From positions 24,834 through 88,833 of the forward strand of contig CAZNGE010000001.1 in the NCBI GenBank assembly GCA_964572875.1: a stretch of 64,000 nt of DNA, in the 5' to 3' direction. This DNA comes from an uncultured Methanosarcinales archaeon. Lineage in GTDB: Archaea > Nanobdellota > Nanobdellia > Woesearchaeales > UBA11576. The notes beneath the pieces are model-generated. The model was not told the DNA's origin and did not search any database. It saw nothing but the letters and a program-made list of their open reading frames with translations. Position numbers and translations under genes: made by a program. This document shows, piece after piece, positions 1,411 to 34,506 of the stretch; within the stretch, counting starts at the first letter, position 1; each line of letters begins with the position of its first letter.

Positions 1411-1453
1411 AACAGCAGAGAGCTTCAGCAAGCATCAGGAAAAGAATATCAAG

Positions 1454-2644: not shown

Positions 2645-2679
2645 AAAATTATAAAAGAACACAGATTATTCAGAAGGAC

Positions 2680-4562: not shown

Positions 4563-4565
4563 AAT

Positions 4566-5231
4566 ATGACAATCATCGTGGTGAATTTCAAGACGTATGC
4601 GCAGGCCACAGGCGAGCGCGCCGTAAAGCTCGCGAAGATATGCGAGAAGGTGGCGAAAGAGAAGAAGATAGACATAATGGTTGCTGTGCAGAACGCAGAC
4701 CTGTTCCATGTATCAAGCGAAGTCTCTATCCCGGTCTTTGCAGAGCATATAGACCCTGTCAAGTACGGCGCCAACACAGGAAAGGACCTTCCCGAAGCGC
4801 TGGTCGAGAACGGCGCGACAGGAGTCCTGATCAACCACTCAGAGGACCAGGATGAGCTTAAGGACATCGAGGGGAGCATAAAGCGCGCGAAAGACATCGG
4901 CCTGAAGACAATTGTCTGCGCCCCGAGCGCTAAGTCGAGCGAGGCTATCGCTGCTTTCGGGCCTGACTTTGTCGCTGTCGAGCCTCCTGAGCTCATCGGG
5001 GGGGACATATCAGTGTCGAAGGCGCAGCCAGGGCTGATATCAGAGACTGTCAAGCTCGTCCATAAGGTAGACGGGAAGATTCCGGTGCTGTGCGGCGCAG
5101 GGATAAAGGACCACGAGGACGTCAGGATAGCGGTGAAGCTTGGCTGTGAAGGCATACTTATCGCGTCCGGCGTGACAAAGGCAGAGGATCCTGAGAAGGC
5201 TCTTCTGGACCTGACAAGGGGGTTTGGATGA
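4566..5231 (+). CDS. tpiA: Triosephosphate isomerase, short archaeal type
   Basis: 221 aa, IVVNFKTY start, GGD/EPPELIGG and AGIKDHEDV motifs typical of the archaeal roughly 220-aa TIM. Confidence 0.85.
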   Translation: MTIIVVNFKTYAQATGERAVKLAKICEKVAKEKKIDIMVAVQNADLFHVSSEVSIPVFAEHIDPVKYGANTGKDLPEALVENGATGVLINHSEDQDELKDIEGSIKRAKDIGLKTIVCAPSAKSSEAIAAFGPDFVAVEPPELIGGDISVSKAQPGLISETVKLVHKVDGKIPVLCGAGIKDHEDVRIAVKLGCEGILIASGVTKAEDPEKALLDLTRGFG

Positions 5232-15436: not shown

Positions 15437-15437
15437 A

Positions 15438-18273: not shown

Positions 18274-18572
18274 TTAACAGTACCTCTTTTTTCAGCACAT
18301 ATCTCATTTTGCACGGTTTATAACTTTTTTGTTTTTTACGCGACATGTGAAAAGACGCAAAAAAGCTGAAATGCCTGAAAACGAGGCTTCTGAATTAGTG
18401 ACTAAACATCTGAAAATCCGACAGACCACTGCGCAGTGAACACGAATTTTTATAAAGGGCGTAATCTGGGACACAATACAGTTAGTAATACGTCCAGTAG
18501 CAAAAATTGATGTCAAAGATTGAAAATAGAGTGAAAAAGAGGCATACTGATTAGGTCAGTAGTTACGACAAA

Positions 18573-19808
18573 ATGAGAGTGTTGATGTTCGGTTGGGAGT
18601 TCCCCCCCTTCAAGAGCGGCGGTCTAGGTACGGCCTGCTATGACCTAACCAAGGGTCTCTCGAACCAGGGCGTAAACGTCACCTTTGTCATGCCTGTCGC
18701 TCCTGAAGGAGCCAATGCGCAGTTCGTCAAGCTCGTGGGTGCCAACAACTTCTCAAAAAATGTCAAACTCCGCAAAATAAGCTCTGTTCTCACACCATAC
18801 CAATCATTCAGCTCGTATTCCGAAGCGCTCAGCAAAGTCAGGGCATCATCGAATTACACGACCTCTAAGGATAAGGTATATGGCAATAATCTCTATGAAG
18901 AAGTATACCGTTACTCCATCGCTGCTGCTGACATAGCTGAGGAAGAGGAGTTCGATGTTATCCATGTCCATGACTGGATGACCTACAGGGCAGGCATAAA
19001 CGCCAAGGCCGCTTCTGGCAAGCCATTGGTCGCACATATCCATGCGACAGAGTTCGACCGCACAGGAGGCAATCCCAACCAGATAATAAGCCACATGGAA
19101 TATCAGGGCCTCAGGGCTGCGGATGTAGTGATAGCCAACTCGAATTTCACCAAGCAGAACGTAATCAAGCATTACAGCATCGATCCGGATAAGATAAAGG
19201 TCGTTCACTGGGGAATCGATCCCGAGAACCCATATTATGGGATCAATCATAAGTCTCCTTTCGATGATGAAAAGATCGTACTTTTCCTCGGCAGGATAAC
19301 CATACAGAAAGGTCCTGATTACTTTGTTGAGGCAGCCAACAATGTGCTGAAGTATGTGCCGAATACCAAGTTTGTGGTCGCTGGCTCCGGAGACATGTTC
19401 GAGCGCATGATCAACAGGGCAGACGAGCTGGGGATACTCAACAACTTCATATTCACAGGATTCCTCAAGGGCGCTGACGTCCACAAGGCATTCCAGATGG
19501 CAGACCTTTATGTGATGCCTTCAGTTTCCGAGCCTTTCGGCCTCGTCGCGCTCGAATCGCTAAAGAACGGCACGCCGATACTGATATCAAAGCAGTCAGG
19601 GGTCAGCGAGGTCGTGAATCACGCCCTGAAGGTCGATTTCTGGGATGTGGCTGAGATGACCAACAAGATAGTCAATGTGCTGAAGTATCCTGAACTGCAT
19701 TCAGAGCTAAAGGAAAACAGCTTCAGGGAAGTACAGGGCTTCAACCTTGACGAACCGGCCAGGAAGACCAGGGAGATCTACGAGCAGGCTATAATTATCA
19801 AGAGGTAA
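18573..19808 (+). CDS. GT-B retaining glycosyltransferase (GT4/GT5-like; archaeal glycogen/alpha-glucan synthase-like)
   Basis: MRVLMFGWEFPPFKSGGLG N-terminus and C-terminal EPFGLVALESL motif of GT4/GT5 synthases. Adjacent to GH57. Confidence 0.75.
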   Translation: MRVLMFGWEFPPFKSGGLGTACYDLTKGLSNQGVNVTFVMPVAPEGANAQFVKLVGANNFSKNVKLRKISSVLTPYQSFSSYSEALSKVRASSNYTTSKDKVYGNNLYEEVYRYSIAAADIAEEEEFDVIHVHDWMTYRAGINAKAASGKPLVAHIHATEFDRTGGNPNQIISHMEYQGLRAADVVIANSNFTKQNVIKHYSIDPDKIKVVHWGIDPENPYYGINHKSPFDDEKIVLFLGRITIQKGPDYFVEAANNVLKYVPNTKFVVAGSGDMFERMINRADELGILNNFIFTGFLKGADVHKAFQMADLYVMPSVSEPFGLVALESLKNGTPILISKQSGVSEVVNHALKVDFWDVAEMTNKIVNVLKYPELHSELKENSFREVQGFNLDEPARKTREIYEQAIIIKR

Positions 19809-19816
19809 TCGAAAAA

Positions 19817-21064
19817 ATGGTGAGCGTGTGTTTTTATTTCCAGGTGCATCAGCCTTTCAGGATGAGGCGTTACCCTATCTTTGATATAGGGAAGAAGCGG
19901 AACTATTTTGACGACGAGAAGAACATAGAGGTGCTCAGGAAGGTCGCGAGGAAGTGCTACCTCCCTGCGAACAGCCTCATGCTGGATCTTCTTGAGAGGC
20001 ATCCCGGGTTCAGGATATCCTATTCTTTGTCAGGTGTTTTTATTGAGCAGTGCGAGAAGTGGGCTCCCGAAGTGCTGGAGAGCTTCAGGAAGCTTGTGGA
20101 TACTGGACGTGTCGAGATTCTATCTGAGACTTACTACCACTCTCTCGCATACCTTTTTTCTAAGGATGAGTTCAAGGAGCAGGTGCTTTTGCACAGGAAG
20201 AAGATTGAGGAGGTGTTCGGCGTCACGCCAAGAGTCTTCAGGAACACAGAGCTGATATACAACAATGAGATCGCGAACTACATCGAAGGAATGGGCTTCA
20301 AGGGAATCATAGCCGAGGGTTGGGACCCTATCCTGGGCTGGAAGAGCGCGAACTTCGTTTACAGGCCAAAGACGACCAGGAATATCAGGCTCCTGCTCAA
20401 GAACTACCGCCTGTCTGATGACATAGCGTTCCGCTTCTCGAACAGGGGATGGGCGGAATGGCCCCTGACGACAGATAAGTTCTGCCAGTGGGTGAACAGA
20501 TACAACGGCAGCGGCGAGTGCATCAACCTGTTCATGGACTACGAGACGATAGGGGAGCACCAGTGGGAGGACACAGGCATATTCGATTTCCTGCGACACC
20601 TGCCAGGCGAGCTGCTGAAGCACCCTGACAACAGCTTCAAGACACCGTCAGAGCTGATAGACACGCACGAGGCAAAAGACGAGATAGACTGCCACCACAT
20701 GATATCCTGGGCAGACATAGAGCGCGACCTGTCGGCATGGCTCGGCAACAGGATCCAGCAGTCATCCGCGAACAGGCTCTACTCATTGGAGAAGGACATA
20801 AAAAATTCAGGAGATCAGCAGCTGCTGGACGACTGGCGCAAATTACAGACATCAGATCATTTCTACTACATGTGCACCAAATGGTTCAATGATGGCGACG
20901 TGCATAAGTACTTCAACCCTTATGACTCGCCATACGACTCTTTCATGAATTTCATGAACGTGATGAATGACATAGTGATACGGCTGAAATCAGGGACTAA
21001 GACGGCATCAGGTGAGGCTGCTGCTGGCGAGGTGAAGGGCGATGACATGGGCAAGGCATTATAA
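19817..21064 (+). CDS. Glycoside hydrolase family 57 protein (alpha-amylase/branching-enzyme family)
   Basis: FYFQVHQPFR region-I motif of GH57 and overall GH57-like N-terminal domain. 415 aa. Confidence 0.72.
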   Translation: MVSVCFYFQVHQPFRMRRYPIFDIGKKRNYFDDEKNIEVLRKVARKCYLPANSLMLDLLERHPGFRISYSLSGVFIEQCEKWAPEVLESFRKLVDTGRVEILSETYYHSLAYLFSKDEFKEQVLLHRKKIEEVFGVTPRVFRNTELIYNNEIANYIEGMGFKGIIAEGWDPILGWKSANFVYRPKTTRNIRLLLKNYRLSDDIAFRFSNRGWAEWPLTTDKFCQWVNRYNGSGECINLFMDYETIGEHQWEDTGIFDFLRHLPGELLKHPDNSFKTPSELIDTHEAKDEIDCHHMISWADIERDLSAWLGNRIQQSSANRLYSLEKDIKNSGDQQLLDDWRKLQTSDHFYYMCTKWFNDGDVHKYFNPYDSPYDSFMNFMNVMNDIVIRLKSGTKTASGEAAAGEVKGDDMGKAL

Positions 21065-21119
21065 GAAGAGGAAATCAGCCGCAAGGCCTATCGTGAAAAG
21101 GATGGAACGGAGGGAGGCC

Positions 21120-21437
21120 ATGATGAAGAAGAGTGCAAAAAACAAAGAGGAGAGCGCTAAGCGCGTATCATCTAAGAAGGAGGAGATATCCCCTGAGAAA
21201 TATTTCATACTCAAGGACGGGACCCATATCAAGAGCATAAAGGAGCTTGCCATGATGATGGACAGCATGAGCGATGACAGCTTCAGCTTCCACGTCAATG
21301 AGGAGAAGAATGATTTCGCCAACTGGATAAGGGACGTGTTCGGCAAAGAGGATCTTGCTGACTCATTGCTTGCGCTGAAGTGCAGGAAGGAGAACCAGAT
21401 AGCGCTGCTCAAGCATGCGCTGCACGACAGGATATAG
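21120..21437 (+). CDS. Hypothetical basic protein sharing a novel approximately 65-aa domain with the next gene (paralog A)
   Basis: Strong SD GGAGGGAGG before ATG 21120. Domain YFILKDGTHIKSIKEL...FHVNEEKNDFANWIRDV is shared with 21493..22356. Confidence 0.5.
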   Translation: MMKKSAKNKEESAKRVSSKKEEISPEKYFILKDGTHIKSIKELAMMMDSMSDDSFSFHVNEEKNDFANWIRDVFGKEDLADSLLALKCRKENQIALLKHALHDRI

Positions 21438-21492
21438 GATCAATAATATCAGTGATGATATGGAAAAGATAGAGGCAAACAAGGTGCTATAG

Positions 21493-22356
21493 ATGGACGA
21501 CAAGATGACGCTTATGGACGTGGAGAACCTGCTCAAGGATGTGCATCCTGAAAGGGCTTTCGTGCTCAAGGACGGATCCTCGATAAAGAACCTGCAGGAG
21601 CTGTACTCAGTCTTGCAGGGTATGGAGTCGCACGTATTTGAACATCACGTGAATGAGGAGAGGAACGACTTCGGCAACTGGGTGAAGGACGTGCACAAGG
21701 ACTACAGGCTCGCGAACAGCCTGTTCTCTGCAGGCACTAAAGACGAAGCAGTGAAGGCTATAGGCAGCAGGATATACGAGATAGAGAAGAAGATCAGGCC
21801 TGAGAAGAAGGTTGTTCCCGCGTTGCGGCAGAAGCAGCACAGCATGGTGGTTGTCGCACCTCAGAAAGCCGGGCCTGCGCCTGTGAAAGCTGTGGACCTG
21901 CCGGCCAAGGAGGAGAATCCTGTGCTCGAGGACGCAGGAGAACTCGAGAAGAAGGTCATCGTCGAGGCAAAGATAGAGAAGAAGATTGAGAGCAAGTCAG
22001 CAGCCATCAGCGAGGAAGGCGTGTCGAGGAGACTGCCTGACAAGGATGACCCTTGTGAAGAGCTGATAAAGTTCGCAGAGGAGAAAGGATTCGCAGGCAG
22101 GCTTATAGGCGAAGTGACCAGCGTATTCACGCGCCCCGACATCAGGGGTTTCGCCAGTGATATGAAGAAGGTGTTCGCATCGGGAAGCGAAGCTGATGAC
22201 AGCGTCATGGCAGATGGTGCGGATCAGGAAGATGATGATGAAAGCAGCGGGCCGGAACTGTCTGGCGCAGCCGCAGTCAAAGCGATCAAGGCATCTCAGG
22301 GCGATGATGACAAGAAAGATGAGATCTTGTCCTATCTGAAGAAGGTGTACAGATGA
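21493..22356 (+). CDS. Hypothetical protein, paralog B: conserved N-terminal domain plus long acidic predicted-disordered tail, coupled to the MinD-like ATPase
   Basis: AFVLKDGSSIKNLQEL...HHVNEERNDFGNWVKDV domain. Roughly 180 aa D/E-rich tail. Stop overlaps the MinD start (ATGA). Confidence 0.55.
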   Translation: MDDKMTLMDVENLLKDVHPERAFVLKDGSSIKNLQELYSVLQGMESHVFEHHVNEERNDFGNWVKDVHKDYRLANSLFSAGTKDEAVKAIGSRIYEIEKKIRPEKKVVPALRQKQHSMVVVAPQKAGPAPVKAVDLPAKEENPVLEDAGELEKKVIVEAKIEKKIESKSAAISEEGVSRRLPDKDDPCEELIKFAEEKGFAGRLIGEVTSVFTRPDIRGFASDMKKVFASGSEADDSVMADGADQEDDDESSGPELSGAAAVKAIKASQGDDDKKDEILSYLKKVYR

Positions 22357-23138
22357 GCGGCGCAAGAAAGGATTGCAGGGTCATAGGCGTCATCTCCATA
22401 AAGGGTGGAGTGGGCAAGACTACAGTTGTGTCTAATCTCGGCGCAGTGCTTGCCGGCCAGTTCGGCAAGAAGGTGCTGCTCGTGGACGGAAACATGACAG
22501 CGCCCAACCTGGGACTGCACCTGGGGGTCCTGGATTCAGACAAGACCCTGCACGACGTGATATATGACCACGCACCCATAAACGATGCGGTGCTGACATC
22601 AAGCTATGGATTCGATGTCCTGCCGAGCGCATTGGCTCCGAGGAAGAGCCAGCAGAAGCGCATAAACCCGTACAAGCTGCACAACAGGCTCCTGCGAATA
22701 AGGGGTGATTATGATTTCATAGTGATTGACTCGTCGCCGAACCTTAATGATGAGATGCTGTCCGCGATGATAGCCTCAGACGAGCTGGTGGTCGTGACGA
22801 GCCCTGACTACCCGACGCTGAGCTGCACCATGCACGCCATCAAGGTGGCCAAGGAGAGGAAGACACCTATCAAAGGCCTGGTGCTGAACAAGGTGCGGAA
22901 CAGGAGTTTTGAGCTTTCAGTCAAGGACATAGAGGCTGCGACAGGGGTGCCCGTGCTCTCGGTCATAGATGACGACGTGAAGGTGCTGGAAGCGCTCTCG
23001 AAGACGACTCCTGCCTCGCTTGCTGCGCCGAAGAAGGACTTTTCGGTCGCGTACTGCTCTCTCGCAGCGAAGCTTGCAGGCGAGGAATACAGGGACCCGC
23101 GATTCATGTCGAGAGTGGCGTCCATCTTCAGAAGATAG
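22353..23138 (+). CDS. MinD/ParA-family P-loop ATPase (deviant Walker A)
   Basis: GVISIKGGVGKTTVVSNLG (KGGxGKT) motif. 261 aa. Confidence 0.85.
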   Translation: MSGARKDCRVIGVISIKGGVGKTTVVSNLGAVLAGQFGKKVLLVDGNMTAPNLGLHLGVLDSDKTLHDVIYDHAPINDAVLTSSYGFDVLPSALAPRKSQQKRINPYKLHNRLLRIRGDYDFIVIDSSPNLNDEMLSAMIASDELVVVTSPDYPTLSCTMHAIKVAKERKTPIKGLVLNKVRNRSFELSVKDIEAATGVPVLSVIDDDVKVLEALSKTTPASLAAPKKDFSVAYCSLAAKLAGEEYRDPRFMSRVASIFRR

Positions 23139-23200
23139 GATATCATAGGATCATAGTCTCAACTCAGAAAGAAAAGTACTCATCTGTATCCGTTGGGGGA

Positions 23201-25042
23201 ATGATTTTGGAAGAAAAAAGAGGTGAACATAGAGAACCTAAGGCAGATTTCCTGTTCGAGGTATCCTGGGAAGTATGCAACAAGGTCGGCGGCATAAACA
23301 CGGTCATAAAGAGCAAGATACCGCAGACAGTCAGCAGGTACGGGGACAAGTACTGCCTTGTAGGGCCCTATTTCCATGACAAGGTCAAGGGCGAGTTCGA
23401 GGAGCTCGTGCTGCCCGAAGAGTACAGGGAAGGCAGCGAGGCGCTGAAGGGCATAGGCATAGTGCCCCACTACGGCAAGTGGCTCACAGAAGGGTCTCCC
23501 AACACTCTGCTTCTTGATTTCCAGCCGTTCTTTGAGAGGAAAGATGAGGTGAAGAAGAAGCTGTGGGACATGTACAAGATAGATTCGCTCAACTCCTCGA
23601 ACGAGTTCGACGAGCCCGCCGTGTGGGGCTGGGCCGTCGGGATAATAATCGAGAGTTTCTTCAATAGGTACAACGCGGAATGGAAGATTGCCACCGTGTT
23701 CCACGAGTGGCTTTCAGGCGCAGGGATACTCTACCTGAAATCCCAGAAGTGCAGGATAGCAACTATATTCATAACGCACGCCACTGTCATGGGCAGGTGC
23801 CTGGCGAATGCAGGAGTGGACCTGTACCAGCGTGACGGAGAGGACAAGCTCCTGCTCGATAGGATGGATTTCGATAAGGAGGCGTATGACCGCCACATGC
23901 AATCGAAGCACCAGCTCGAGAAAGCCAGCGCAAACGCCACGGATGTCTTCGCGACGGTCTCGGAGATAACCGGGATGGAGGCAGAGCACGTGCTGAGGAA
24001 GAAGCCGGACCTGCTTGTGCCGAACGGCCTCAACCTTGACGATTTCCCGACGGTAGAGGAGAACTCAATCAAGCACAGGATATTCAGGGACAAGATATAC
24101 CATTTCCTGCTCTATTATTTCTTCCCTTACTACCACCTCGACATAGACAACACGCTGATCTACTTCATAGCGAGCAGGTACGAGATGAGGGACAAGGGCA
24201 TTGACATATTCATAAAGGCCTTGAGCAGGCTCAACCAGAAGCTCAAGGAGGAAAGGTCCAAGAAGAGCATCGTTACGTTCTTCTGGGTGCCTTCAGGAGT
24301 GAGAGGCGTCAAGCAGGAGATCGTAGAGAACAAGACCATGTTCAAGGATGTCGAGGACAGCCTGAAGGACAATTCAGAGCATGTCATGTGGCGCCTGCTG
24401 AGCACTTTCGTCGGCGACAAGCCGATAATAAAGGAGACCATATTCGACAAGGCGTTCCTGGCAGACATAAAGAAGAAAGTGATGAAGTTCAAGAGGGAAG
24501 AGACCGCACCTCCGATATGCACCCATGATCTCATAGACCATAATGATGAGATAACGCGCAGCCTCTCTGAGGAAGGCCTCCTGAACTCGAGAGAGGACAA
24601 GGTAAAGGTGATATTCTATCCGATATACCTGACAGGCGCTGACGGGCTTCTCGACCTGACATACTATGAGGCAATACAGGGCGCGCATCTCGGCGTGTTC
24701 CCCTCATTCTACGAGCCTTGGGGATACACCCCTCTGGAGGCAGGAGCGCTCGGGGTCGCATCGATAACGACAGACCTTGCGGGATTCGGGAAATACATTG
24801 AAGGGAAGACTGACGAGAAGTGTCTTGGCATCTGCGTCCTGAAGAGGCTGGGCAGGCCGGACGCGGAAGTGATAGACGCGCTGTATGACAGGTTATACAC
24901 GTACGCAGAGATGCCGAAGAAGAATCGTGTCGACAACAAGCTTGAGGCCAGGAAAATGGCCAGCCTTGCGGACTGGGACAGCCTGATACTGAATTACTTC
25001 AACGCTGAGGATATGGCTATAGACAGGGTATTCAGCGGATGA
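23201..25042 (+). CDS. Glycogen synthase, eukaryote-type (GT3 family)
   Basis: FLFEVSWEVCNKVGGINTVIKSK N-terminus (the LFEVAWEVANKVGGIYTV signature of GT3 glycogen synthases). 613 aa. Confidence 0.85.
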   Translation: MILEEKRGEHREPKADFLFEVSWEVCNKVGGINTVIKSKIPQTVSRYGDKYCLVGPYFHDKVKGEFEELVLPEEYREGSEALKGIGIVPHYGKWLTEGSPNTLLLDFQPFFERKDEVKKKLWDMYKIDSLNSSNEFDEPAVWGWAVGIIIESFFNRYNAEWKIATVFHEWLSGAGILYLKSQKCRIATIFITHATVMGRCLANAGVDLYQRDGEDKLLLDRMDFDKEAYDRHMQSKHQLEKASANATDVFATVSEITGMEAEHVLRKKPDLLVPNGLNLDDFPTVEENSIKHRIFRDKIYHFLLYYFFPYYHLDIDNTLIYFIASRYEMRDKGIDIFIKALSRLNQKLKEERSKKSIVTFFWVPSGVRGVKQEIVENKTMFKDVEDSLKDNSEHVMWRLLSTFVGDKPIIKETIFDKAFLADIKKKVMKFKREETAPPICTHDLIDHNDEITRSLSEEGLLNSREDKVKVIFYPIYLTGADGLLDLTYYEAIQGAHLGVFPSFYEPWGYTPLEAGALGVASITTDLAGFGKYIEGKTDEKCLGICVLKRLGRPDAEVIDALYDRLYTYAEMPKKNRVDNKLEARKMASLADWDSLILNYFNAEDMAIDRVFSG

Positions 25043-25070
25043 GGATATGTTTAGGTAAGGAGATGCTAAA

Positions 25071-26033
25071 ATGGAGCTGAGAAAAGATTACATCCTTGAC
25101 AGGTGGGTCATCATAGCCACCGGAAGAGGGAAGAGGCCCCACGAGTTCAAGACCGAGGATGACATATATGCTGATGATAAGGGTCCTGAGAAATGCTTCT
25201 TCTGCCCTGGCAACGAGTCCATGACCCCTCCTGAAATAGGCAGGGTGAAGGACGACAAGGGCGGATGGAAGCTGCGCTGGTTCGCGAACAAGTTCGCTGC
25301 TGTCGACAAGAGCGGCGACGCCAGTATCAAGACAGACAACAATTTCTTCACATACTCTGACGCATATGGGAACCATGAGGTCATTGTCGAGACTCCTGAC
25401 CACATGAAGCAGATGATAGACCTTAATGAAAAGGAGATAATGGACCTGCTGAAAGTATACGCACGTCGCATAGACGTGCTGATAAACGAGCCTAACATTA
25501 AGTACGTGTGCGTTTTCAAGAATGAAGGTAAGAAGGCAGGCACATCAATCGTGCATTCGCACAGCCAGCTGATATCGCTCAACACTGTGCCGACAGAGGT
25601 CACAGCGAAGATAGAGGCTGCAAAAAGGTTCCCTTCATGCCCTTACTGCGACATAATCAAGACAGAGGCAAAGGGCCACCGGCATGTCCACGAGGACGAC
25701 ACGACTGTGACGTTCACGCCTTACGCTTCAAGGTTCAACTTCGAGGTCTGGATATTCCCGAAGAACCATTACAAGACCCTGAGAGACTTCTCTGATGACG
25801 AGATGTTCGACCTTGCGGCTGCTATGAAACGGGTGCTGAAAAAGCTGAAGGACCTTAACGCCAACTTCAACATGGTGATGTACTATGCGCCCAAAGGCGA
25901 GGACCTGCACTTCCATATAGAGTTCCTGCCCCGCATCGCGACATGGGCAGGGTTTGAGCTGGAGTCAGGGGTCACGATCAACGTCGTGAGCCCTGAGGAC
26001 GCGGCCCTGTTTTATAAGGGCGAGCATAAATAA
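25071..26033 (+). CDS. Galactose-1-phosphate uridylyltransferase-family (GalT/HIT) nucleotidyltransferase
   Basis: CFFCPGNE zinc site and HSHSQ (HxHxQ) active site. 320 aa. Confidence 0.8.
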   Translation: MELRKDYILDRWVIIATGRGKRPHEFKTEDDIYADDKGPEKCFFCPGNESMTPPEIGRVKDDKGGWKLRWFANKFAAVDKSGDASIKTDNNFFTYSDAYGNHEVIVETPDHMKQMIDLNEKEIMDLLKVYARRIDVLINEPNIKYVCVFKNEGKKAGTSIVHSHSQLISLNTVPTEVTAKIEAAKRFPSCPYCDIIKTEAKGHRHVHEDDTTVTFTPYASRFNFEVWIFPKNHYKTLRDFSDDEMFDLAAAMKRVLKKLKDLNANFNMVMYYAPKGEDLHFHIEFLPRIATWAGFELESGVTINVVSPEDAALFYKGEHK

Positions 26034-26071
26034 TAAAAATCCCCCACACCCAGCCAATACTGGTGATAATC

Positions 26072-27448
26072 ATGACGGTGAACGAAAAGATATTCAAAGC
26101 TTATGATATACGGGCAGTTTATCCTGATGAGATAGACGAGGATGCAGCATACATCATAGGACGGGCGTTCGTGACATTCCTTGGCTGTAAGGAAGTTGTT
26201 GTGGGCCAGGACATGCGCAGCAGCTCCCCTTCGCTTTTCGATGCCCTCGCCAGAGGGATAACTGACCAGGGAGCCGATGTCATAGACATAGGGAAGAGCA
26301 GCACCCCTTTCTTCTACTTCGGTACTGCAGGCCACGAGGCAGGTATCATGGTCACTGCTTCCCACAATCCCGCCAAGTACAACGGCTTCAAGATGTGCAG
26401 GGACGGCACAGTGCCTATCGGAGGGGACAGCGGCATGCAGGAGATAAAGGCCCTTGCGGTTGCTGGCGGGTTCAAGGATACTGAAACAAAGGGAAGCATC
26501 AGAAAGAAAGACATAACAGATGATTTCATCACGCACAACCTCAAGTTCCTGGACAGCAGCTTGTCAGGAAAGAATCTGAAGATAGTGGTCGATACCGGCA
26601 ACGGCATGGGAGGCTACACATTCCCGAAGGTATTCGAGAGGGTCGAGAACATAGAGGTTGTCCCTCTCTACTTTGACGTAGACATGACATTCCCTAACCA
26701 CGAGGCGAACCCGATAAAGCCTGAGAACGTGAAGGACCTCCAGGAAGCTGTCATCAGTAACAATGCTGACTTCGGCGCTGCGATAGACGGTGACTGCGAC
26801 AGGTGCTTCTTCGTGGATGAGAAAGGGGATGTAGTCACTGCTGACCTTATAACAGCCCTGCTCGCGAAAGAGCTTCTCAAGGACAATCCCGGAGCAAGGA
26901 TACTCTATGATCTCAGGTCAAGCTGGGCCACAAAGGAGGTCATCGAGGAGAACGGCGGAAAGCCGGGCATGTGCCGCGTCGGCCACGCGTTCATAAAGAA
27001 GCAGATGAGGGAAGAGGACGCCCTGTTCGCAGGAGAGCTATCAGGTCATCTCTATTACCGGGACTCATTCGTCACAGAGAGCTCGATAATATCCACTCTG
27101 CTTATAATCAACCTGATACGAAAAGAGGGCAAGGCATTGTCCGAGCTCGTAAAGCCGATAAAGAGGTATTTTCCCAGCGGAGAGATAAATTCAGAGGTCG
27201 GGGACAAGGAAGGCAAGATGAAGGAGCTCGAGGGGATGTTCAGGGCGGAGGCGAAGGTCACTTCGCATCTCGACGGGATAAAGCTTGAGTTCGACGATTG
27301 GTGGTTCAATGTGCGCGCCTCGAACACAGAGCCCCTGCTGAGGCTGAACCTCGAGGCCAAGACGGAAAAGAGGATGGAGGAGATGCGTGACAGGATCGTC
27401 GCGATAATCCGCAGAAAAAGAGATGAAGATATCACACAAGCTTCCTAG
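26072..27448 (+). CDS. Phosphoglucomutase/phosphomannomutase (alpha-D-phosphohexomutase)
   Basis: TASHNPAKYNGFK phosphoserine loop, GDCDR and GELSGH motifs. ATG 26072 with GGTGAT RBS. Track start 26063 is GTG. Confidence 0.88.
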   Translation: MTVNEKIFKAYDIRAVYPDEIDEDAAYIIGRAFVTFLGCKEVVVGQDMRSSSPSLFDALARGITDQGADVIDIGKSSTPFFYFGTAGHEAGIMVTASHNPAKYNGFKMCRDGTVPIGGDSGMQEIKALAVAGGFKDTETKGSIRKKDITDDFITHNLKFLDSSLSGKNLKIVVDTGNGMGGYTFPKVFERVENIEVVPLYFDVDMTFPNHEANPIKPENVKDLQEAVISNNADFGAAIDGDCDRCFFVDEKGDVVTADLITALLAKELLKDNPGARILYDLRSSWATKEVIEENGGKPGMCRVGHAFIKKQMREEDALFAGELSGHLYYRDSFVTESSIISTLLIINLIRKEGKALSELVKPIKRYFPSGEINSEVGDKEGKMKELEGMFRAEAKVTSHLDGIKLEFDDWWFNVRASNTEPLLRLNLEAKTEKRMEEMRDRIVAIIRRKRDEDITQAS

Positions 27449-29252
27449 ACTGGGCATAAGCAGGGACGGCTGCGACGCGGATGTCTGCGTCCTTGCGAAT
27501 AATCTGGGCAGTTTCCTTTTCTTATCTCCTTCATCGATATCCAAGTTCAACGGTTTCTTCACGAACTACGGGCTTAAGCTGTACAAGACGGTGCAGAACA
27601 TAGGTCTTCTCGACCAGGCGCCTGTCGAGATGGAGAACAGCCTGACGGCGATAAGCAGGAGGTATCCTGGAAACTCTGAAAGGATAGTATGCCCTGACAG
27701 CATACAGGGCTTGATATACACCTTGTCCAAGAAAGGGAGCATATTCATGGACTTCGACTTCCGCAAGATGGATGACATGAGGTCGTTCGGGAGGATATAT
27801 GAGGTAACGCAGGAAGACGGCAGGATACTGGTCGAATTCACCAAGATGACCGACGAGAGGGAGGACAGCACAGACGGGGTCGCTGAGTTCAGCTTCTTTG
27901 CGGCGATACAGCCTAAGGGGTTCAGCCCACAGACAGACTATAAGTTCATAGACTATTGGCTTGAGAGCGATTACAGGTATGACAGGGAGAGGAAAGACCC
28001 TCCTGACAGGAGATATGTCTACAGGCCTTTCATGATAAAGGCGAAGCAGCTCCTGATCGGCGTCGGCAAGACAAAGGCGGATGCGATTGCAGAGCTCGAT
28101 AAACTGAAGAAGTTCAAGGCAGGAAAGAAGGATTATAAGACGATAGACAAGAAGAAGGATGCTGAGGCCGCTGCCGCTTTCATCTGCGCCCAGGAGTCGC
28201 TTGAGAAGATGAAGTCAGAGGACATCGACGGCACGACGAGGCTGTACGCAGGCTATCCCTGGTTCTTCCAGTTCTGGTCAAGGGATGAGAACGTTTCCCT
28301 TGGCGCGCTCATGAAGCTGAAGCAGTTCAGGACAGTGAAGGGCATACTTTTCAAGTACCTTAAGAACATCGGCAAGGACGGCAGGCTCGCCAACCGCGTG
28401 CCATCGTCGCATCTCGGCTCTGCAGACGGTGTGGGGTGGTTCTGGAAACGTATCGGAGATTTCATCGCAGCACTCAAGGAGCTGCACCTGCGCGAGAAAT
28501 ACCTGTCGCCCAAGGAGATGAAGGACATAAGGGACTCTCTGGCGGACTCGATAAGAAAGATAGAGAAGAACTACAAGTCAGGCGGTCTCATAACGAACAA
28601 GGACAATGAGACCTGGATGGACACCGACCCTGGCGGCCAGGACCCGCGCGACGGGAAGAGGATCGAGGTGCAGGCCCTGCATCTCAACATGCTCAGGCTG
28701 ATGCATGAGCTCAGCGGCGACATGAGATACAAGACAAAGGAGACGAAGATGAGGAAGGAAGTGATAAAGGGCTTCTGGAACGGGAAGCTGATAGCTGACG
28801 GTGTGGATGATTATACTATAAGGCCGAATATTTTCATAGCGTATTACGTTTATCCTGACCTGCTCCCGAGGAGAGAGTGGCAGACATGCTTTGAGAACGC
28901 ACTGAAGAAGATCTGGCTGGACTGGGGTGGCCTTTCATCCATAGACAAGGGCAATCCCCTCTTCACGCCGGAATATACAGGAATGGATGACAGGAGCTAT
29001 CACCGCGGGGACTCATGGTACTGGATAAACAACCTTGCTGCGATATGCATGTTCAGGAACAATGCTATTGAGTTTGAAGGAAGGATAAAACAGATAATCA
29101 AGGCAAGCTCTGAGGAGATACTCTGGCACGGCGCGATAGGGGACCATGCAGAGATAAGCTCTGCCTCGCATCTTTCGTCGAAAGGGTGCTTTGCGCAGGC
29201 ATGGAGCGCTGCCATTTTCATTGAGCTGATGATGGAGACGATGGGAGGATGA
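27423..29252 (+). CDS. Glycogen debranching enzyme / amylo-alpha-1,6-glucosidase family (GDE C-terminal (alpha/alpha)6 domain)
   Basis: GYPWFFQFWSRDENVSLGAL (the GYPWF..GRDT-type motif of this family) and C-terminal GDSWYWINNL. 5' end overlaps pgm by 26 nt, so the true start is uncertain. Confidence 0.72.
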   Translation: MKISHKLPRLGISRDGCDADVCVLANNLGSFLFLSPSSISKFNGFFTNYGLKLYKTVQNIGLLDQAPVEMENSLTAISRRYPGNSERIVCPDSIQGLIYTLSKKGSIFMDFDFRKMDDMRSFGRIYEVTQEDGRILVEFTKMTDEREDSTDGVAEFSFFAAIQPKGFSPQTDYKFIDYWLESDYRYDRERKDPPDRRYVYRPFMIKAKQLLIGVGKTKADAIAELDKLKKFKAGKKDYKTIDKKKDAEAAAAFICAQESLEKMKSEDIDGTTRLYAGYPWFFQFWSRDENVSLGALMKLKQFRTVKGILFKYLKNIGKDGRLANRVPSSHLGSADGVGWFWKRIGDFIAALKELHLREKYLSPKEMKDIRDSLADSIRKIEKNYKSGGLITNKDNETWMDTDPGGQDPRDGKRIEVQALHLNMLRLMHELSGDMRYKTKETKMRKEVIKGFWNGKLIADGVDDYTIRPNIFIAYYVYPDLLPRREWQTCFENALKKIWLDWGGLSSIDKGNPLFTPEYTGMDDRSYHRGDSWYWINNLAAICMFRNNAIEFEGRIKQIIKASSEEILWHGAIGDHAEISSASHLSSKGCFAQAWSAAIFIELMMETMGG

Positions 29253-30145
29253 AACAGGACGATAACATGGAATACGCGATAGCTTTGGATGTCGGGGGAA
29301 GCAAGATGACCACCTGCCTCGTGGACGAGACAGGGAAGATAATCGACGGTGAGCGCCGGCTGACCGATGCCCCTGAAGGCAGGAGGAAGGTGCTGTTAAA
29401 CATAATATCAGAGATAAAGAAGATGATGGACAAGCACAAGGACATCAGCGTGAAAGGGATAGGCATAGGCATGCCAGGATTCATAGACAGCAAAGGGAAA
29501 GTGGTGTTCATGCCCAATGTTCCGCTTGTCGGGTTCAACATAGTGAATAAGCTCAATAAGAGGTTCAAGTGCCCCGTTGCTGTAGAAAATGACGCGAACT
29601 GCTTTGCGCTCGGTGAATACTCTTTCGGCAGGCACAAGTCAAAGGTCCTGCTCGGCCTCATAGTAGGCACAGGCGTGGGCTGCGGGATAGTATCAAACGG
29701 AAAGCTGATATCAGGTTGCGGAGGCGGCGCAGGGGAGATAGGCCACAACCTGCTTGACAATTCCACAGATAAGCTTGTTGTCAAGAAGAATGATTTCGAG
29801 TCTGTGTGCTCAGGCCCTAACATCAGCAGGCGGTACTCTGAAGCAGGAGGAAAAGACACTATCCCGAAACAGGTATTCGCGGCAAAGGATCATGCAGCTA
29901 GGAAGGTGATAGATGATGAGTACAACTGTCTGGGCAAGTTGTTGGGATCCATGGTCAATACACTGAACCCGGACACCATAGTCCTGGGAGGCAGCGTGAG
30001 CAAGTCGCTGAAACCAGGACGGCTAAGGAAGGAGATCGTGAAATACTCCATACCTTTCTCTGCAAAGCTGGTCAAGGTCAAGCAGAGCAGGCTTGATGAC
30101 ATAGCCGGTGTGCTTGGCGCTGCAGCCTTGATATTCGAGCAGTAG
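29249..30145 (+). CDS. ROK-family sugar kinase (glucokinase-like)
   Basis: ALDVGGSKMT N-terminal ATP motif and GxGxGxG plus CxCGxxGC ROK zinc motif (CSGPN..). Start 29249 or 29267. Confidence 0.8.
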   Translation: MKQDDNMEYAIALDVGGSKMTTCLVDETGKIIDGERRLTDAPEGRRKVLLNIISEIKKMMDKHKDISVKGIGIGMPGFIDSKGKVVFMPNVPLVGFNIVNKLNKRFKCPVAVENDANCFALGEYSFGRHKSKVLLGLIVGTGVGCGIVSNGKLISGCGGGAGEIGHNLLDNSTDKLVVKKNDFESVCSGPNISRRYSEAGGKDTIPKQVFAAKDHAARKVIDDEYNCLGKLLGSMVNTLNPDTIVLGGSVSKSLKPGRLRKEIVKYSIPFSAKLVKVKQSRLDDIAGVLGAAALIFEQ

Positions 30146-30295
30146 GGAGGCTCTAGAGCCATGATTCTGCAGTCTCATCTGCCAGGATTACCCATCCCCA
30201 GACCTTCTGTTACCACTTAACAGAGACAACAAAACGAAACATTTATATATTAGTTCTGAACCTTATATCATTAGTTGGTTGGAGGTGGCTGAGAG

Positions 30296-30928
30296 ATGTA
30301 CTTACCTGACAAGATAGAGAAAAGCATTTCTAGGCTGGAGAGGCTTGCTGATAAAGGCGGGTTTGATGACGATCTATATCTGAGTACAGCTGAGCAATGC
30401 AGCTACATTGATGGAGATGAGACAAAGAGGATGTACACTAGGATGCTCGACCTTCTTGTCGCGCTTTCAAGCTCTGTCAGGCTCGGATTTCATGATACTG
30501 CTGAAGGCATAAGGCTGCTTTACAATGCAGAGTGCGGCGGCAAGTTCAAGATAGACACCGATAGGGCGTTCTCAATCCTTGAAGAGGCGGCATTCACAGG
30601 AAAGTGGAGTGGAAGCCTGCAGGAGTGCATCACCAAGACCCTGAATCTGGATGACCATGCCAAGATGGATTACAGGACCAGGCGAAACAGGGACAGGATG
30701 CATGACCTGACAACAGCATATTCGCTGCTCCTCGCTTCAAAGGATGACAGCTCCCTGAACGCCAGGGCGCTGGTCGCGATGAGGGTGTATGTCGACAGCA
30801 ACCCCTCATCCAAGGATTTCCTTCCTGACGACCTGCGGGCAAGGGTGTTCCCTGAAGAGTTCATGAAGGCAAATGAAGGCAAACGACAGACAGAAAATAG
30901 TCTGAACAAAGATAGAGGTGCGCAATAA
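30296..30928 (+). CDS. Hypothetical protein
   Basis: GGAGGTG RBS. 210 aa. No recognisable motifs. Stop overlaps the start of the next gene. Confidence 0.45.
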   Translation: MYLPDKIEKSISRLERLADKGGFDDDLYLSTAEQCSYIDGDETKRMYTRMLDLLVALSSSVRLGFHDTAEGIRLLYNAECGGKFKIDTDRAFSILEEAAFTGKWSGSLQECITKTLNLDDHAKMDYRTRRNRDRMHDLTTAYSLLLASKDDSSLNARALVAMRVYVDSNPSSKDFLPDDLRARVFPEEFMKANEGKRQTENSLNKDRGAQ

Positions 30929-31935
30929 TGATCCAGAAATCAATACACATACTCACGCAGCTCCAGCATCCGAAAGGCCTGTTCGTGGCTGCGCTTGACA
31001 AGAGCACGCACTACTCAAGGCAGGCATGGATCCGCGACAACATCTACGCGAGCCTCGGCTTCGAGGCGGTTAAGAGGCATAAGGAGGTCGTGAAGGCATA
31101 CCAGGCATTGCTTGACGTGCTGAAGAAGCACGAGTACAAGATAGACTGGGCGATCGTCGAGAAGCCGCAGCATCGCTGGCAGTACATCCACGCACGGTTC
31201 GACCCTGAGACATTCGATGAGTTCCAGGAGGACTGGGGCAACAAGCAGAACGACGCCATCGGAGCTTTGCTCTTCAAGATAGGCGACCTCGAGTCCAAAG
31301 GCATAAGGGTCATACGTGACAAGGATGACGAGCGCATAATCCAGAAGCTCGTATATTATCTTAACTCAATACAATATTGGCATGACAAGGACAGCGGCAT
31401 GTGGGAGGAGAACGAGGAAGTGCATGCTTCCTCTGTCGGAGCATGCGTAGCTGGCCTCAAGAAGATATCCAAGATAGTTGATGTTCCTCAAGTTCTCATA
31501 CAGAAAGGTGAGGAAACCTTGAACCAACTCTTGCCAAGGGAATCTGACAGCAAAGACACAGACCTTGCGCTTCTGTCGCTGATCTACCCGTACAACGTGG
31601 TTTCAGATGAGCAGAGGATGCAGATACTCCAGGATGTTGAGAGAAAGCTTGTCAGGCAGCGCGGAGTGATCCGTTACGCAGCCGACTTCTATTTTAACAG
31701 GAATGGAGAAGCAGAATGGACATTCGGATTCCCTTGGCTTGCAATCATCTACAAGCAGCTGAACAGACCTGACAAGGCAGCGTTCTACATGCGCAAGACC
31801 CTTGAGGTCGTCAACAAAGCAGGCGAGCTCCCTGAGCTCTACTACGCCAACACCGACGAGCACAACGAGAACACTCCGTTGGGATGGGGCCAGAGCCTGA
31901 TGGTTGTGGCGATGACCAAGAACCAGACAGCGTAA
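30928..31935 (+). CDS. GH15-like (glucoamylase/glucodextranase family) glycoside hydrolase catalytic domain
   Basis: QAWIRDNIYA (the W-x-R-D motif), GMWEENEEVH (the LWEE general-acid region), GWGQSL. Roughly 335 aa (alpha/alpha)6-like. Confidence 0.6.
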   Translation: MIQKSIHILTQLQHPKGLFVAALDKSTHYSRQAWIRDNIYASLGFEAVKRHKEVVKAYQALLDVLKKHEYKIDWAIVEKPQHRWQYIHARFDPETFDEFQEDWGNKQNDAIGALLFKIGDLESKGIRVIRDKDDERIIQKLVYYLNSIQYWHDKDSGMWEENEEVHASSVGACVAGLKKISKIVDVPQVLIQKGEETLNQLLPRESDSKDTDLALLSLIYPYNVVSDEQRMQILQDVERKLVRQRGVIRYAADFYFNRNGEAEWTFGFPWLAIIYKQLNRPDKAAFYMRKTLEVVNKAGELPELYYANTDEHNENTPLGWGQSLMVVAMTKNQTA

Positions 31936-33772: not shown

Positions 33773-33804
33773 AACCAGAAGACACACGAACTAAAGGTGA
33801 AAAG

Positions 33805-34506
33805 ATGCAAAGACTAAGAATCAAGCCGGTATTCATAATGAACCAGGAAGGGCTCTCTGAGCTGGAAAAGAAAGCAATCCTGGACGGAGCCAGGGAATTG
33901 CGGAGCATAGCAGGTGTTGAAGGCCTCATTGAGATCAAGGATTTGGGTGTGTGGAGAAACCGCGACCATGTCAATCCAGATGGTTCATTGAAGAGGTATC
34001 AGAGCGTGGAGTGGTACATACAAAGAGGAAAAGGAAAGAATAACAAGACAGGACAACTGAAGACAGAGTTGATACTGAATGATCTGGAACTTGAGCCTTG
34101 GAGAGATACACAGGACCATTATGACCTGCTTATCTGCCATAGAGATGTCACTTCCTTGTACTTTGATGTGGCGTTTCTAGTAGGCCAAGGGAGACCGGAT
34201 ATTGGAGCAGTGATATCCACCAACAGATTTAGAAACAGTCAACTAAGCGACAGGGAGTTGTATGAGTGCTTGAAAACTGCCGCAATACACGAACTCGGTC
34301 ACGTGTTCAGGCTGCCTGGCCAAGGAAAAAACACCTATAGGAGTGCCGGGAATGATATAGAGAACGACCATTGCACAAACGTATGCGTTATGCGACAAGG
34401 GGATCATGTCCCAAGTGATTGGGTTAGGATAAGCAGAGACAGATTGAAGAATGGCGCATTATGTAGGGAGTGCTCAAGGAATCTAAAAAAATATTTCCGG
34501 AAATGA
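33805..34506 (+). CDS. Archaemetzincin-like zinc metallopeptidase (M54-like), divergent
   Basis: HELGHVF HExxH motif, then HCTNVCVM (C-x3-C-x-M) and CRECS, resembling the archaemetzincin HExxH...C..C.M...CxxC arrangement. ATG 33805 with AAGGTGA RBS. Track start 33769 is GTG. Confidence 0.55.
   Translation: MQRLRIKPVFIMNQEGLSELEKKAILDGARELRSIAGVEGLIEIKDLGVWRNRDHVNPDGSLKRYQSVEWYIQRGKGKNNKTGQLKTELILNDLELEPWRDTQDHYDLLICHRDVTSLYFDVAFLVGQGRPDIGAVISTNRFRNSQLSDRELYECLKTAAIHELGHVFRLPGQGKNTYRSAGNDIENDHCTNVCVMRQGDHVPSDWVRISRDRLKNGALCRECSRNLKKYFRK

Follow-up and report, generated by a model that had tools for sequence, protein, structure and literature searches.

A Probable Glycogen Storage and Mobilization Locus in a Woesearchaeal Archaeon and Its Accessory OrfY-Like/MinD Module

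The Locus and Its Gene Content

Between positions 18,573 and 31,935 of a 64,000-nucleotide (nt) stretch of DNA from an uncultured archaeon (GenBank assembly GCA_964572875.1, contig CAZNGE010000001.1, positions 24,834 to 88,833; hereafter the window, meaning the whole stretch that was analyzed), a run of forward-strand genes encodes proteins of alpha-glucan metabolism, among them a glycogen synthase of glycosyltransferase family 3 (GT3); part of a second such synthase lies at the left edge of the window. We consider it likely that this locus serves cytoplasmic glycogen storage and mobilization in a fermentative Woesearchaeal (DPANN) archaeon, that it has been vertically inherited, and that it comprises two probable transcription units. 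An overlapping contig, L082, extends the portion of the genome covered here from 64 kb by roughly 7 kb more. The genes and features on which the argument turns are as follows, with the basis of each family assignment in brackets.

3..344, + strand: C-terminal 113 amino acids (aa) of a second GT3 synthase (GT3-2), cut by the window edge (Pfam PF05693)
18274..18572: divergent intergenic region of 299 nt between a [NiFe] hydrogenase small subunit gene (- strand) and the GT4/5 gene (+ strand)
18573..19808, + strand: GT-B retaining glucosyltransferase at the GT4/GT5 border, 411 aa (GT4/5; Pfam Glycos_transf_1, Glyco_transf_4, Glyco_transf_5)
19817..21064, + strand: glycoside hydrolase family 57 (GH57) protein of the alpha-amylase-like subgroup, 415 aa (PF03065)
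21042..21437, + strand: DUF5752-A, 131 aa (PF19027)
21493..22356, + strand: DUF5752-B, 287 aa (jackhmmer)
22353..23138, + strand: MinD/ParA-family ATPase, 261 aa (MinD; Pfam AAA_31/CbiA/ParA)
23201..25042, + strand: glycogen synthase GT3-1, 613 aa (PF05693)
25071..26033, + strand: class I GalT-like HIT-family nucleotidyltransferase, 320 aa (GalP_UDP_transf/HIT)
26063..27448, + strand: phosphoglucomutase/phosphomannomutase (PGM), 461 aa, GTG start (Pfam PGM_PMM I-IV)
27423..29252, + strand: GH133-type amylo-alpha-1,6-glucosidase, or debrancher (GDE), 609 aa (GDE_C, PF06202)
29249..30145, + strand: ROK-family sugar kinase, presumed glucokinase, 298 aa (PF00480)
30296..30928, + strand: unk210, 210 aa (no family)
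30928..31935, + strand: catalytic-domain-only GH15 protein, 335 aa (PF00723)

The open reading frame (ORF) listing and the Pfam matches bear out the genes, coordinates and strand given by a first-pass annotation of this DNA, which had also recognized the second GT3 at 3..344 upstream of a glycolytic operon. Its inventory was right in what it named and missed two genes, those of DUF5752 (21042-21437 and 21493-22356). The overlaps of 1-4 nt that it reported are present, measuring 4 nt for DUF5752-B/MinD and GDE/ROK and 1 nt for unk210/GH15, and there are further overlaps of 23 and 26 nt. From GT4/5 to ROK the largest intergenic gap is 62 nt; a 150-nt gap carrying a TATA-like TTTATATATT lies upstream of unk210. 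The AT-rich region at 18274..18572, with its TATA-like TTTTTATAAAG, is the presumed promoter region of the glycogen operon. This spacing supports two transcription units, probably running from GT4/5 to ROK and from unk210 to unk245 (a gene described with the neighbors below), and with them the earlier proposal of one or two long operons linking glucose phosphorylation to glycogen synthesis and degradation.

For comparison, a genome scan confirmed 584 stretches that encode relatives, and 80 loci were fetched as a sample, half of them of DPANN or Candidate Phyla Radiation (CPR) type and the other 40 bacterial (Bacteroidota, Planctomycetota and Deltaproteobacteria); contig ends make the counts drawn from this sample minima. 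The full gene order, MinD included, recurs in the loci L001, L084 (GCA_016929255.1), L085 (GCA_964563755.1) and L086, whose GT3 proteins share 61-79% identity. Because the same order is common to at least five related genomes, the clustering is not a matter of chance.

The Glycogen Synthases

GT3-1 matches the PF05693 profile with E=2.9e-151 and 505.6 bits (cut-off 27) over profile positions 1-587 of 639, and in a search of the PDB its residues 17-611 are collinear with residues 28-617 of human GYS1 (8cvx; E=2e-118). Its alignments with the Caenorhabditis elegans glycogen synthase GSY-1 and with yeast Gsy2p likewise run from end to end, and the E-x7-E catalytic motif, the R..K nucleotide-sugar motif and RYEMRDKG are all intact. 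The archaeal protein thus has a catalytic core in common with the eukaryotic synthases over its full length (E ~1e-118); it differs from them in sitting in a prokaryotic operon, in being known here from sequence alone, and in lacking the eukaryotic N- and C-terminal phospho-regulatory tails, since it terminates where the eukaryotic tail starts. Because these tails are absent, their phosphorylation is not conceivable as a means of regulating GT3-1. In the Arg-cluster helix (KKNRVDNKLEARK in GT3-1, RRQRIIQRNRTER in GYS1), five of the six arginine positions are still basic (K or R), which makes regulation by glucose-6-phosphate conceivable.

The fragment at 3-344 matches PF05693 at profile positions 475-587 (E=5.2e-27). 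On L082, which differs from the window by 1 mismatch in 8,140 nt and represents the same population, GT3-2 is intact (L082:5854-7665), a PF05693-annotated protein of 603 aa with 46% full-length identity to GT3-1. Judged by these profile searches, which return the family that the first-pass annotation had given, both proteins are genuine members of GT3. A rough neighbor-joining tree without support values places the two in separate Woesearchaeal clades, GT3-1 clustering with loci that bear MinD and GT3-2 with loci of the GT3-GalT-PGM type; by this placement they would be old paralogues within Woesearchaeota and not the product of recent duplication or import. Directly upstream of GT3-2, at L082:4661-5776 and therefore some 1.5-2.7 kb upstream of the start of the window, a 371-aa protein with two tandem Lrp/AsnC-type helix-turn-helix-plus-ligand modules is encoded, a candidate regulator of the operon that GT3-2 heads together with glycolytic genes.

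No glycogenin (GT8) is found among the Pfam matches in the island. The neighboring GT4/5 protein, announced earlier as a GT4/5-like synthase, keeps that description in so far as the GT4 and GT5 Pfam profiles are all matched above cut-off (Glycos_transf_1 at 125.6 bits, Glyco_transf_4 at 95.4 and Glyco_transf_5 at 80.2), and loses it as an assignment to GT5, the NCBIfam models falling far below their cut-offs (TIGR02095, glgA, 98 bits against 328; TIGR02149, glgA_Coryne, 124 against 302). Its PDB matches begin with the GT4 enzyme GlgM (6tvp; 1e-18, 71 bits), followed by MshA and then by the Pyrococcus abyssi GlgA (1e-15). On these scores the protein is not assignable to a single family, GT4 or GT5. 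It carries a C-terminal E-x7-E and, near its N-terminus, FKSGGLG, a motif of the KxGGL type that is typical of glucan synthases. The most economical reading is that it would act as a second glucan synthase or as a primer-forming enzyme, because it constantly adjoins GT3 in lineages that are reported to have no glycogenin homologue, the role of such GT4 genes being listed as an open question in the same source, a 2024 article in Chemical Reviews (PMC11046441).

The GH57 protein (281 bits against PF03065) shows the motifs HQP, TE145 and D241-x-E. Glu145 (WLTE) aligns with the nucleophile of TLGT, the 4-alpha-glucanotransferase of Thermococcus litoralis, which is also the sole PDB sequence match and a weak one (7e-4); Asp241 (MDYETIGEH) was assigned as the acid/base by inspection of motifs. 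The motifs place the protein in the alpha-amylase-like subgroup. Its activity may be that of an amylase or that of the branching enzyme that is otherwise missing, a role that PMC11046441 proposes for this subgroup in archaea.

Sugar Activation and Glucan Breakdown

The best PDB match of the GalT-like protein is Arabidopsis At5g18200 (1z84; E=7e-53, 183 bits), followed at a distance by Escherichia coli GalT (1e-19, 74 bits). The H-x-H-x-Q active site (HSHSQ) and the Zn-binding CxxC (CFFC) are kept, both being identical to those of At5g18200; the archaeal gene differs from this best structural-database match in its operon context beside a glycogen synthase. At5g18200 is given as an ADP-glucose phosphorylase in PMC6329318, which cites McCoy (2006). 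We propose that the GalT-like enzyme interconverts glucose-1-phosphate and nucleoside diphosphate glucose (NDP-glucose). It would be the sole candidate in view for this link, because Pfam scans return no GlgC/GalU-type gene either in the island or across the sister loci of 17-22 kb; the same scans return no GT35 phosphorylase. The adjacent PGM/PMM protein scores 498 bits against NF007088, below the cut-off of 618.

In the debrancher, the GDE_C domain (PF06202, 128.7 bits against a cut-off of 21) occupies residues 270-600 and the N-terminal half is uncharacterized; the archaeal model TIGR01561 (gde) gives 60.9 bits against a cut-off of 364, and there was no sequence match in the PDB. The ROK kinase matches PF00480 (193 bits) and scores 128.5 against the glucokinase model TIGR00744 (cut-off 260). 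In three sister genomes the same slot is filled by a PF02685 glucokinase that is non-homologous to ROK (L084:16273-17373, L085:16116-17201 and L086:14948-16048), and this supports glucose as the substrate of the ROK enzyme; we regard such non-orthologous displacement as good evidence that glucose freed by hydrolysis would need to be re-phosphorylated. The next gene, unk210, has no Pfam or NCBIfam match, and weak homologues occupy the same slot at L085:17940-18443 (phmmer 1.8e-11) and L086:16414-16752 (1.5e-5).

The GH15 protein (62 bits against PF00723, cut-off 22) is the most conserved of the island, with 62-85% identity across the fetched loci. Its PDB sequence matches are limited to phosphorylase kinase (PhK) alpha (6.5e-16) and beta (1.4e-11). 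An AlphaFold 2 (AF2) model (pLDDT 87.9) shows an (alpha/alpha)6 barrel and lacks the N-terminal beta-sandwich that prokaryotic glucoamylases have, and Foldseek ranks PhK beta/alpha first (TM-score 0.84-0.88), with a 371-aa catalytic-domain-only glycosidase (5z3a/7c24) also retrieved and classical glucoamylases as much weaker fold matches (bacterial 1lf6). The barrel is the same in the PhK alpha/beta GH15-like domains, in 5z3a/7c24 and here, the window protein being a free-standing 335 aa with both Glu motifs. These motifs, WEENEE and LPE, are invariant among 38 homologues, and because both catalytic-type glutamates are retained the protein is probably an active hydrolase and not a regulatory subunit. 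By sequence and fold, the GH15 of this lineage appears as the closest free-standing relative of the PhK alpha/beta domain.

The DUF5752 and MinD Genes

Jackhmmer searches on the ORFs of the loci brought out a domain of about 75 aa, with the signature FxxxDG...L...M...FxHHVNxxKNDFxxW, in the two genes that lie between GH57 and MinD. In most DPANN/CPR loci a DUF5752 gene pair adjoins GH57 and GT3, lying between them; in the bacterial loci it does so in none. In DUF5752-A, one OrfY-like domain (PF19027, 32.2 bits against a cut-off of 23) comes after an N-terminal tail rich in Lys, Arg and Ala. L001, L084 and L086 keep its N-terminal MxWxRH(Y/V)K, and A-type proteins in general have histone-like Lys/Ala/Pro-rich tails. 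The AF2 model of the DUF5752-A domain (pLDDT 93.5) has a single fold match, OrfY of Thermoproteus tenax (4cso; Foldseek probability 0.96-1.0). OrfY, which belongs to a trehalose (TreT) operon of T. tenax, has the fold and the NDFxxW motif in common with the window domains. It carries two copies of the domain in one protein, and the DUF5752 family profile matches both halves (E=1.6e-5), so that the A+B pair looks like a split version of the tandem OrfY. It differs from the DUF5752 pair, whose domains are encoded by two genes, A having a basic tail and B a tail that is either transmembrane (TM) or coupled to MinD.

DUF5752-B falls below the cut-off of 23 for PF19027 (15.9 bits) and is recovered by jackhmmer (E=1e-27). 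Its OrfY-like domain comes first and is followed by a variable linker and by the C-terminal motifs ELIxFAE..GF, FASDMKK.F and DDKK..(I/M)LS(Y/H)LKKVY, as read from an alignment with the orthologues of L084, L085, L086 and L001. In the subclade of the window, B lacks a TM helix, and its stop codon and the start codon of MinD overlap (ATGA). None of the six MinD-linked loci of the sample encodes a B with a TM helix; in 14 loci without MinD the B-type tail ends in a predicted TM helix with a conserved (K/R)EF..G(L/I)..G motif, and there the protein is by prediction tail-anchored.

The MinD protein has the deviant Walker A KGGVGKT and is most similar in the PDB to Pyrococcus MinD (1ion/1g3q, ~1e-35); at 182.2 bits it stays below the curated subfamily threshold of archaeal MinD (TIGR01969, cut-off 201.75). 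A C-terminal extension of about 20 aa (DPRfxS+VxxiF+R), conserved in the orthologues, has a helical hydrophobic moment of 0.73-0.90 and is a possible membrane-targeting helix. Translational coupling of MinD to DUF5752-B is seen in five genomes; in L060, a distant locus from Nanopusillaceae, 4-nt overlaps link a DUF5752 gene of 97 aa to a MinD-like gene of 226 aa and the latter to GT3. No ParB-family domain occurs among the Pfam matches of the MinD neighbors, no search having been made for centromere-like repeats. A ParA-like gene in the CPR locus L020 was considered as evidence for the module and dropped, since it is an ordinary Soj with a gene of ParB size after it. The deviant Walker A, the amphipathic C-terminal extension and a small adjoining partner gene recall the MinD/ParA positioning ATPases (archaeal MinD, bacterial MinD with its membrane-targeting helix at the C-terminus, and McdA/McdB of carboxysomes), from which the window system differs in that its partner is OrfY-like and encoded upstream, that its neighbors are glycogen enzymes, and that it is known here from its genes.

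The DUF5752 family at large numbers 5,175 cluster representatives and includes fusions to P-loop ATPases of the KaiC/GvpD and HerA/DUF87 types (database proteins P0395, P0405, P0403 and P0411), which suggests a general partnership of the domain with ATPases. In a CPR-like 'bacterium' metagenome-assembled genome (MAG), a DUF5752 domain is fused to the C-terminus of GH57 in one 502-aa protein (L029:8170-9678), a Rosetta-stone link. From their gene order across genomes, DUF5752-A, DUF5752-B and MinD appear to constitute a conserved accessory module. The adjacency to glycogen enzymes, the fusion to GH57, the exchange of a membrane anchor for MinD and the repeated partnership with ATPases suggest an adaptor that localizes or regulates glycogen enzymes.

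The rival to this adaptor reading is that the DUF5752 pair are transcription regulators of the OrfY type and MinD an unrelated passenger of division or segregation, with no spatial organization involved. The PDB entry 4cso does call OrfY a 'transcription factor,' the histone-like tails of A-type proteins could bind DNA, and the MinD family usually works in division or in the positioning of other cargos. However, the label has no accessible experimental basis, and our search found no literature on the function of DUF5752 or OrfY. The predicted tail anchor of the B-type protein in 14 loci, the fusion of the domain to GH57 itself, the coupling of MinD to DUF5752-B in five genomes together with the overlapping genes of L060, and the repeated fusions to other P-loop ATPases also speak against it, and we hold the regulator explanation to be doubtful.

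With low confidence, the adaptor reading may be carried further, to a trio that tethers or scaffolds the glycogen enzymes or the granule at the membrane. An OrfY-like A/B heterodimer would bind GH57 and/or GT3, and the anchor would be a C-terminal TM helix in most lineages or, in the subclade of the window and in Nanopusillaceae, an ATP-switchable MinD with an amphipathic tail. That the trio amounts to an unrecognized system of DPANN and CPR for placing glycogen synthesis at the membrane, as part of a distinct 'DPANN-type' pathway, is a speculation that we think unlikely to hold. If true, the pathway would have a GT4/5 primer enzyme in place of glycogenin and an NDP-glucose phosphorylase-type activation, and it would be made largely of relatives of eukaryotic components (GT3, GDE_C and PhK-like GH15).

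A Model for Glycogen Storage and Mobilization

The analysis establishes family membership, gene order, conservation and the lack of signal peptides, and we envision the following route. The ROK kinase would phosphorylate glucose, and PGM would convert glucose-6-phosphate to glucose-1-phosphate. NDP-glucose would be formed from the latter by the At5g18200-like GalT-family candidate (glucose-1-phosphate + NDP <-> NDP-glucose + Pi) or, alternatively, by a nucleotidyltransferase encoded elsewhere. The GT3 synthase would then elongate alpha-1,4 chains, the adjoining GT4/GT5-like transferase acting as a second synthase or supplying the primer in place of glycogenin, and the GH57 protein would trim or branch the glucan. 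Breakdown would be hydrolytic: the GH133 debrancher and the short GH15 would release glucose for re-phosphorylation by the kinase, and glucose-6-phosphate would enter the nearby glycolysis operon headed by the second GT3. What we infer in this route are the donor specificity, the priming and branching steps, which way the GalT-like reaction runs and where the operons begin and end. Transcription of Woesearchaeal GH15 and glycogen synthase genes has been recorded in situ (PMC11606122).

Several points weigh against this model. The GalT-like protein passes the NCBIfam cut-off for GalT (TIGR00209, 114.8 bits against 102.1), and it may for that reason be an ordinary uridylyltransferase or a breakdown enzyme. 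Taken by itself, NDP-glucose synthesis by a phosphorylase-type enzyme is estimated to be thermodynamically uphill. The genome may also encode a phosphorylase or pyrophosphorylase beyond the 64 kb and ~7 kb covered. The GH57 protein has no PDB match (E<=1e-3) to the branching enzymes of Thermococcus kodakarensis, Thermus thermophilus or Pyrococcus horikoshii; the operon boundaries derive from gene spacing alone; and no enzyme of this clade has been characterized so far. More broadly, PMC11046441 describes archaeal GT3 activity as untested and glycogen in DPANN as not demonstrated.

The locus might instead consume exogenous or host-derived starch or glycogen and not a storage polymer of its own. 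Published reconstructions of Woesearchaeota assign GH57 to the degradation of starch and GH133/GH15 to that of glycogen (PMC11606122; PMC9723730), as DPANN metagenome papers usually do with these three families, and DPANN are thought to be host-dependent. Counted in the same operon, however, are two GT3 synthases, a GT4/5 transferase, PGM and a sugar-nucleotide enzyme, and the island holds no transporter. The N-termini of GH57, GH15 and GDE show no signal peptide, and the hydrolases contain no TM segment. The consumption of outside glucan is accordingly very unlikely, in our estimate, and internal storage is the better account. Less probable again is a small alpha-glucoside or osmolyte as the product (trehalose, or maltose-1-phosphate by a GlgE-type route), with a TreT- or GlgM-like role for the GT4 protein. 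The trehalose (TreT) operon in which T. tenax OrfY lies speaks for such a product, and GlgM is the first PDB match of the GT4 protein, but at 71 bits a weak one, the glgA_Coryne score of 124 bits stands against a cut-off of 302, Pfam finds no GlgE, TreS or Mak in the island, and GT3, GH133 and GH15 all work on polymeric or oligomeric alpha-glucan.

Distribution and Inheritance of the Locus

The window is archaeal, encoding FttA/aCPSF1 with a KH domain as well as an archaeal-type ProRS. All named close homologues of GT3-1, DUF5752 and GH15 come from Woesearchaeota or Nanoarchaeota, and a GT4 fragment at least 90% identical is from a Woesearchaeota MAG. MAGs labeled 'uncultured Methanosarcinales archaeon' (L001, L003, L007, L011, L016, L018 and L024) carry GT3 loci of Woesearchaeota type; because these loci mix with Woesearchaeota in the GT3 tree, and the other named close relatives are all Woesearchaeota or Nanoarchaeota, the labels on L001 and several others are doubtful and look wrong.

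Relatives of the synthase are abundant: in a GT3 search, 3,307 of the scored candidates reached E<=1e-20, and the best 120 are all at least 51% identical. GT4 and GH57 adjoin GT3 in at least 25 of the 40 DPANN/CPR loci and at least 21 of the 40 bacterial ones, and the GT4-GH57-GT3 series, sometimes accompanied by GalT, GDE and GH15, is found again in DPANN, CPR bacteria and Bacteroidota alike. A GalT-like gene directly downstream of GT3 is found in at least 11 of the DPANN/CPR loci and in no bacterial locus. DUF5752 genes accompany GT3 in at least 23 of the 40 DPANN/CPR loci and are confined to that type. In the neighbor-joining tree, a single clade of Bacteroidota and Deltaproteobacteria is nested within the DPANN sequences, in agreement with the maximum-likelihood tree of PMC11046441; that paper confines archaeal GT3 to DPANN and Euryarchaeota and regards the Bacteroidetes GT3, nested in DPANN, as probably acquired from DPANN. 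These results do not sustain the first-pass claims that GT3 is uncommon in archaea, where PMC11046441 had already placed it in DPANN, and that the arrangement is unusual, since it is common and conserved across DPANN, CPR and Bacteroidota.

Nor is 'island' apt in the sense of a horizontally acquired block. GC content (~0.47-0.54) is alike inside the island and in its flanks, and composition is uniform along the window. The same [NiFe] hydrogenase lies divergently upstream of GT4 in L084, L085 and L086, and the same FttA lies downstream in L085. Composition and flanking synteny together argue against recent transfer, and on this evidence the locus is best described as chromosomal and vertically inherited, its arrangement a common one. 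Although GT3 is best known from animals and fungi, and although closely related clusters in Bacteroidota and CPR bacteria imply inter-domain transfers at some time (PMC11046441), a recent acquisition of the GT3 genes and the island from eukaryotes or bacteria is the least credible alternative and highly improbable: composition is indistinguishable from that of the flanks, the flanking genes are syntenic in sister genomes, both GT3 copies sit inside deep Woesearchaeal clades, the nesting of bacterial sequences among DPANN makes the direction more likely one from DPANN to bacteria, and an Rfam scan of the whole window returned no tRNA or other RNA match, no dedicated search for integrases or flanking repeats having been made.

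Two described systems offer the closest comparisons, both as given in PMC11046441. The DPANN/Bacteroidota GT3 clusters (GT4, GH57, GT3, GH133 and GH15) consist of the same families in the same GT4-GH57-GT3 core order and raise the same open questions, namely what GT4 does, which enzyme introduces the branches and why glycogenin is absent. To these the subclade of the window adds MinD and a TM-less DUF5752-B between GH57 and GT3; the window operon further adds the GalT-like, PGM and kinase genes, and a second GT3 heads the glycolysis operon. In the searched passages of that paper we found no discussion of the DUF5752 pair, of the GalT-like gene or of the PhK-like nature of the GH15. The set of Sulfolobus acidocaldarius (GT5 GlgA, GH57 amylase, GH15 glucoamylase and the GH133 'GlgX') is alike in its hydrolytic breakdown by GH15 and GH133, and its GH57 'amylase' is required for glycogen accumulation. 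It differs in that its synthase is GT5 where that of the window is GT3, in that the window GH15 is without the N-terminal domain, and in that a DUF5752/MinD module is not reported there.

Neighboring Genes

The remaining features of the neighborhood are given here with their strands.

397..6436, + strand: glycolysis/gluconeogenesis operon encoding GAPDH, PGK, a PfkB-type kinase, class II fructose-bisphosphate aldolase, triosephosphate isomerase and a phosphoglucose isomerase (PGI)-like protein (Pfam on window ORFs and Pfam annotation of L082 genes)
31940..33772, + strand: unk610, 610 aa, no Pfam match
33769..34506, + strand: unk245, 245 aa, with an HELGH motif (weak archaemetzincin similarity)

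The last gene of the glycolysis operon (5228-6436) has a weak PGI match (34.7 bits, residues 51-120) and may encode a diverged phosphoglucose isomerase or some other enzyme of SIS type. On the - strand, 6510-10880 holds a [NiFe] hydrogenase set of large, small, FAD/NAD-binding and 4Fe-4S subunits that looks like the group 3b/sulfhydrogenase type. A second [NiFe] hydrogenase, a large and small pair, is encoded at 16200-18273, with maturation genes that are HypC-like (14993-15472) and HycI-like (15809-16237). Between the hydrogenase loci an 806-aa enzyme of the phosphoenolpyruvate (PEP) synthase/pyruvate phosphate dikinase family (11510-13930, - strand) is encoded, and in L084 the same gene likewise lies beside the island. 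A Woesearchaeota metatranscriptome showed joint expression of PEP synthase, GH15 and glycogen synthase (PMC11606122). The glycolysis operon, the PEP synthase and the two hydrogenase loci with their maturation genes make up, by annotation, a fermentative sugar core.

Beyond the island, unk610 follows GH15 by 4 nt and is overlapped by unk245 over 4 nt. The exact sequence of unk610 is not in the protein collection, and unk245 scores 39 bits against NF033823 (cut-off 145). Both were considered as members of the island and rejected, neither having a homologue in any fetched locus; they are lineage-specific and probably not part of glucan metabolism.

Implications for Archaeal Glycogen Metabolism

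By its gene content, the core of the locus is a glycogen operon typical of Woesearchaeota, ordinary in that lineage and of a catalogued kind, and as such it shows GT3 synthases to be less exotic in archaea than they might seem. By the same comparison, what marks the subclade is its variant, in which a MinD-coupled OrfY-like module is joined to an At5g18200-like GalT and a PhK-like GH15 whose roles have not been described before. The locus offers a compact, complete and syntenic gene set for questions that PMC11046441 names as open: the activity of GT3, its control by glucose-6-phosphate, the substitute for glycogenin, the role of GT4 and branching by GH57. It also flags a GalT-like enzyme of the ADP-glucose-phosphorylase type as a conserved partner of GT3 in DPANN and CPR. 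For DUF5752/OrfY, a family of over 5,000 sequence clusters, the links to glycogen enzymes, membranes and P-loop ATPases provide a first testable functional context, and the module is a reasonable experimental lead both into this uncharacterized family and into how glycogen synthesis by archaeal GT3 enzymes is primed, branched and regulated.

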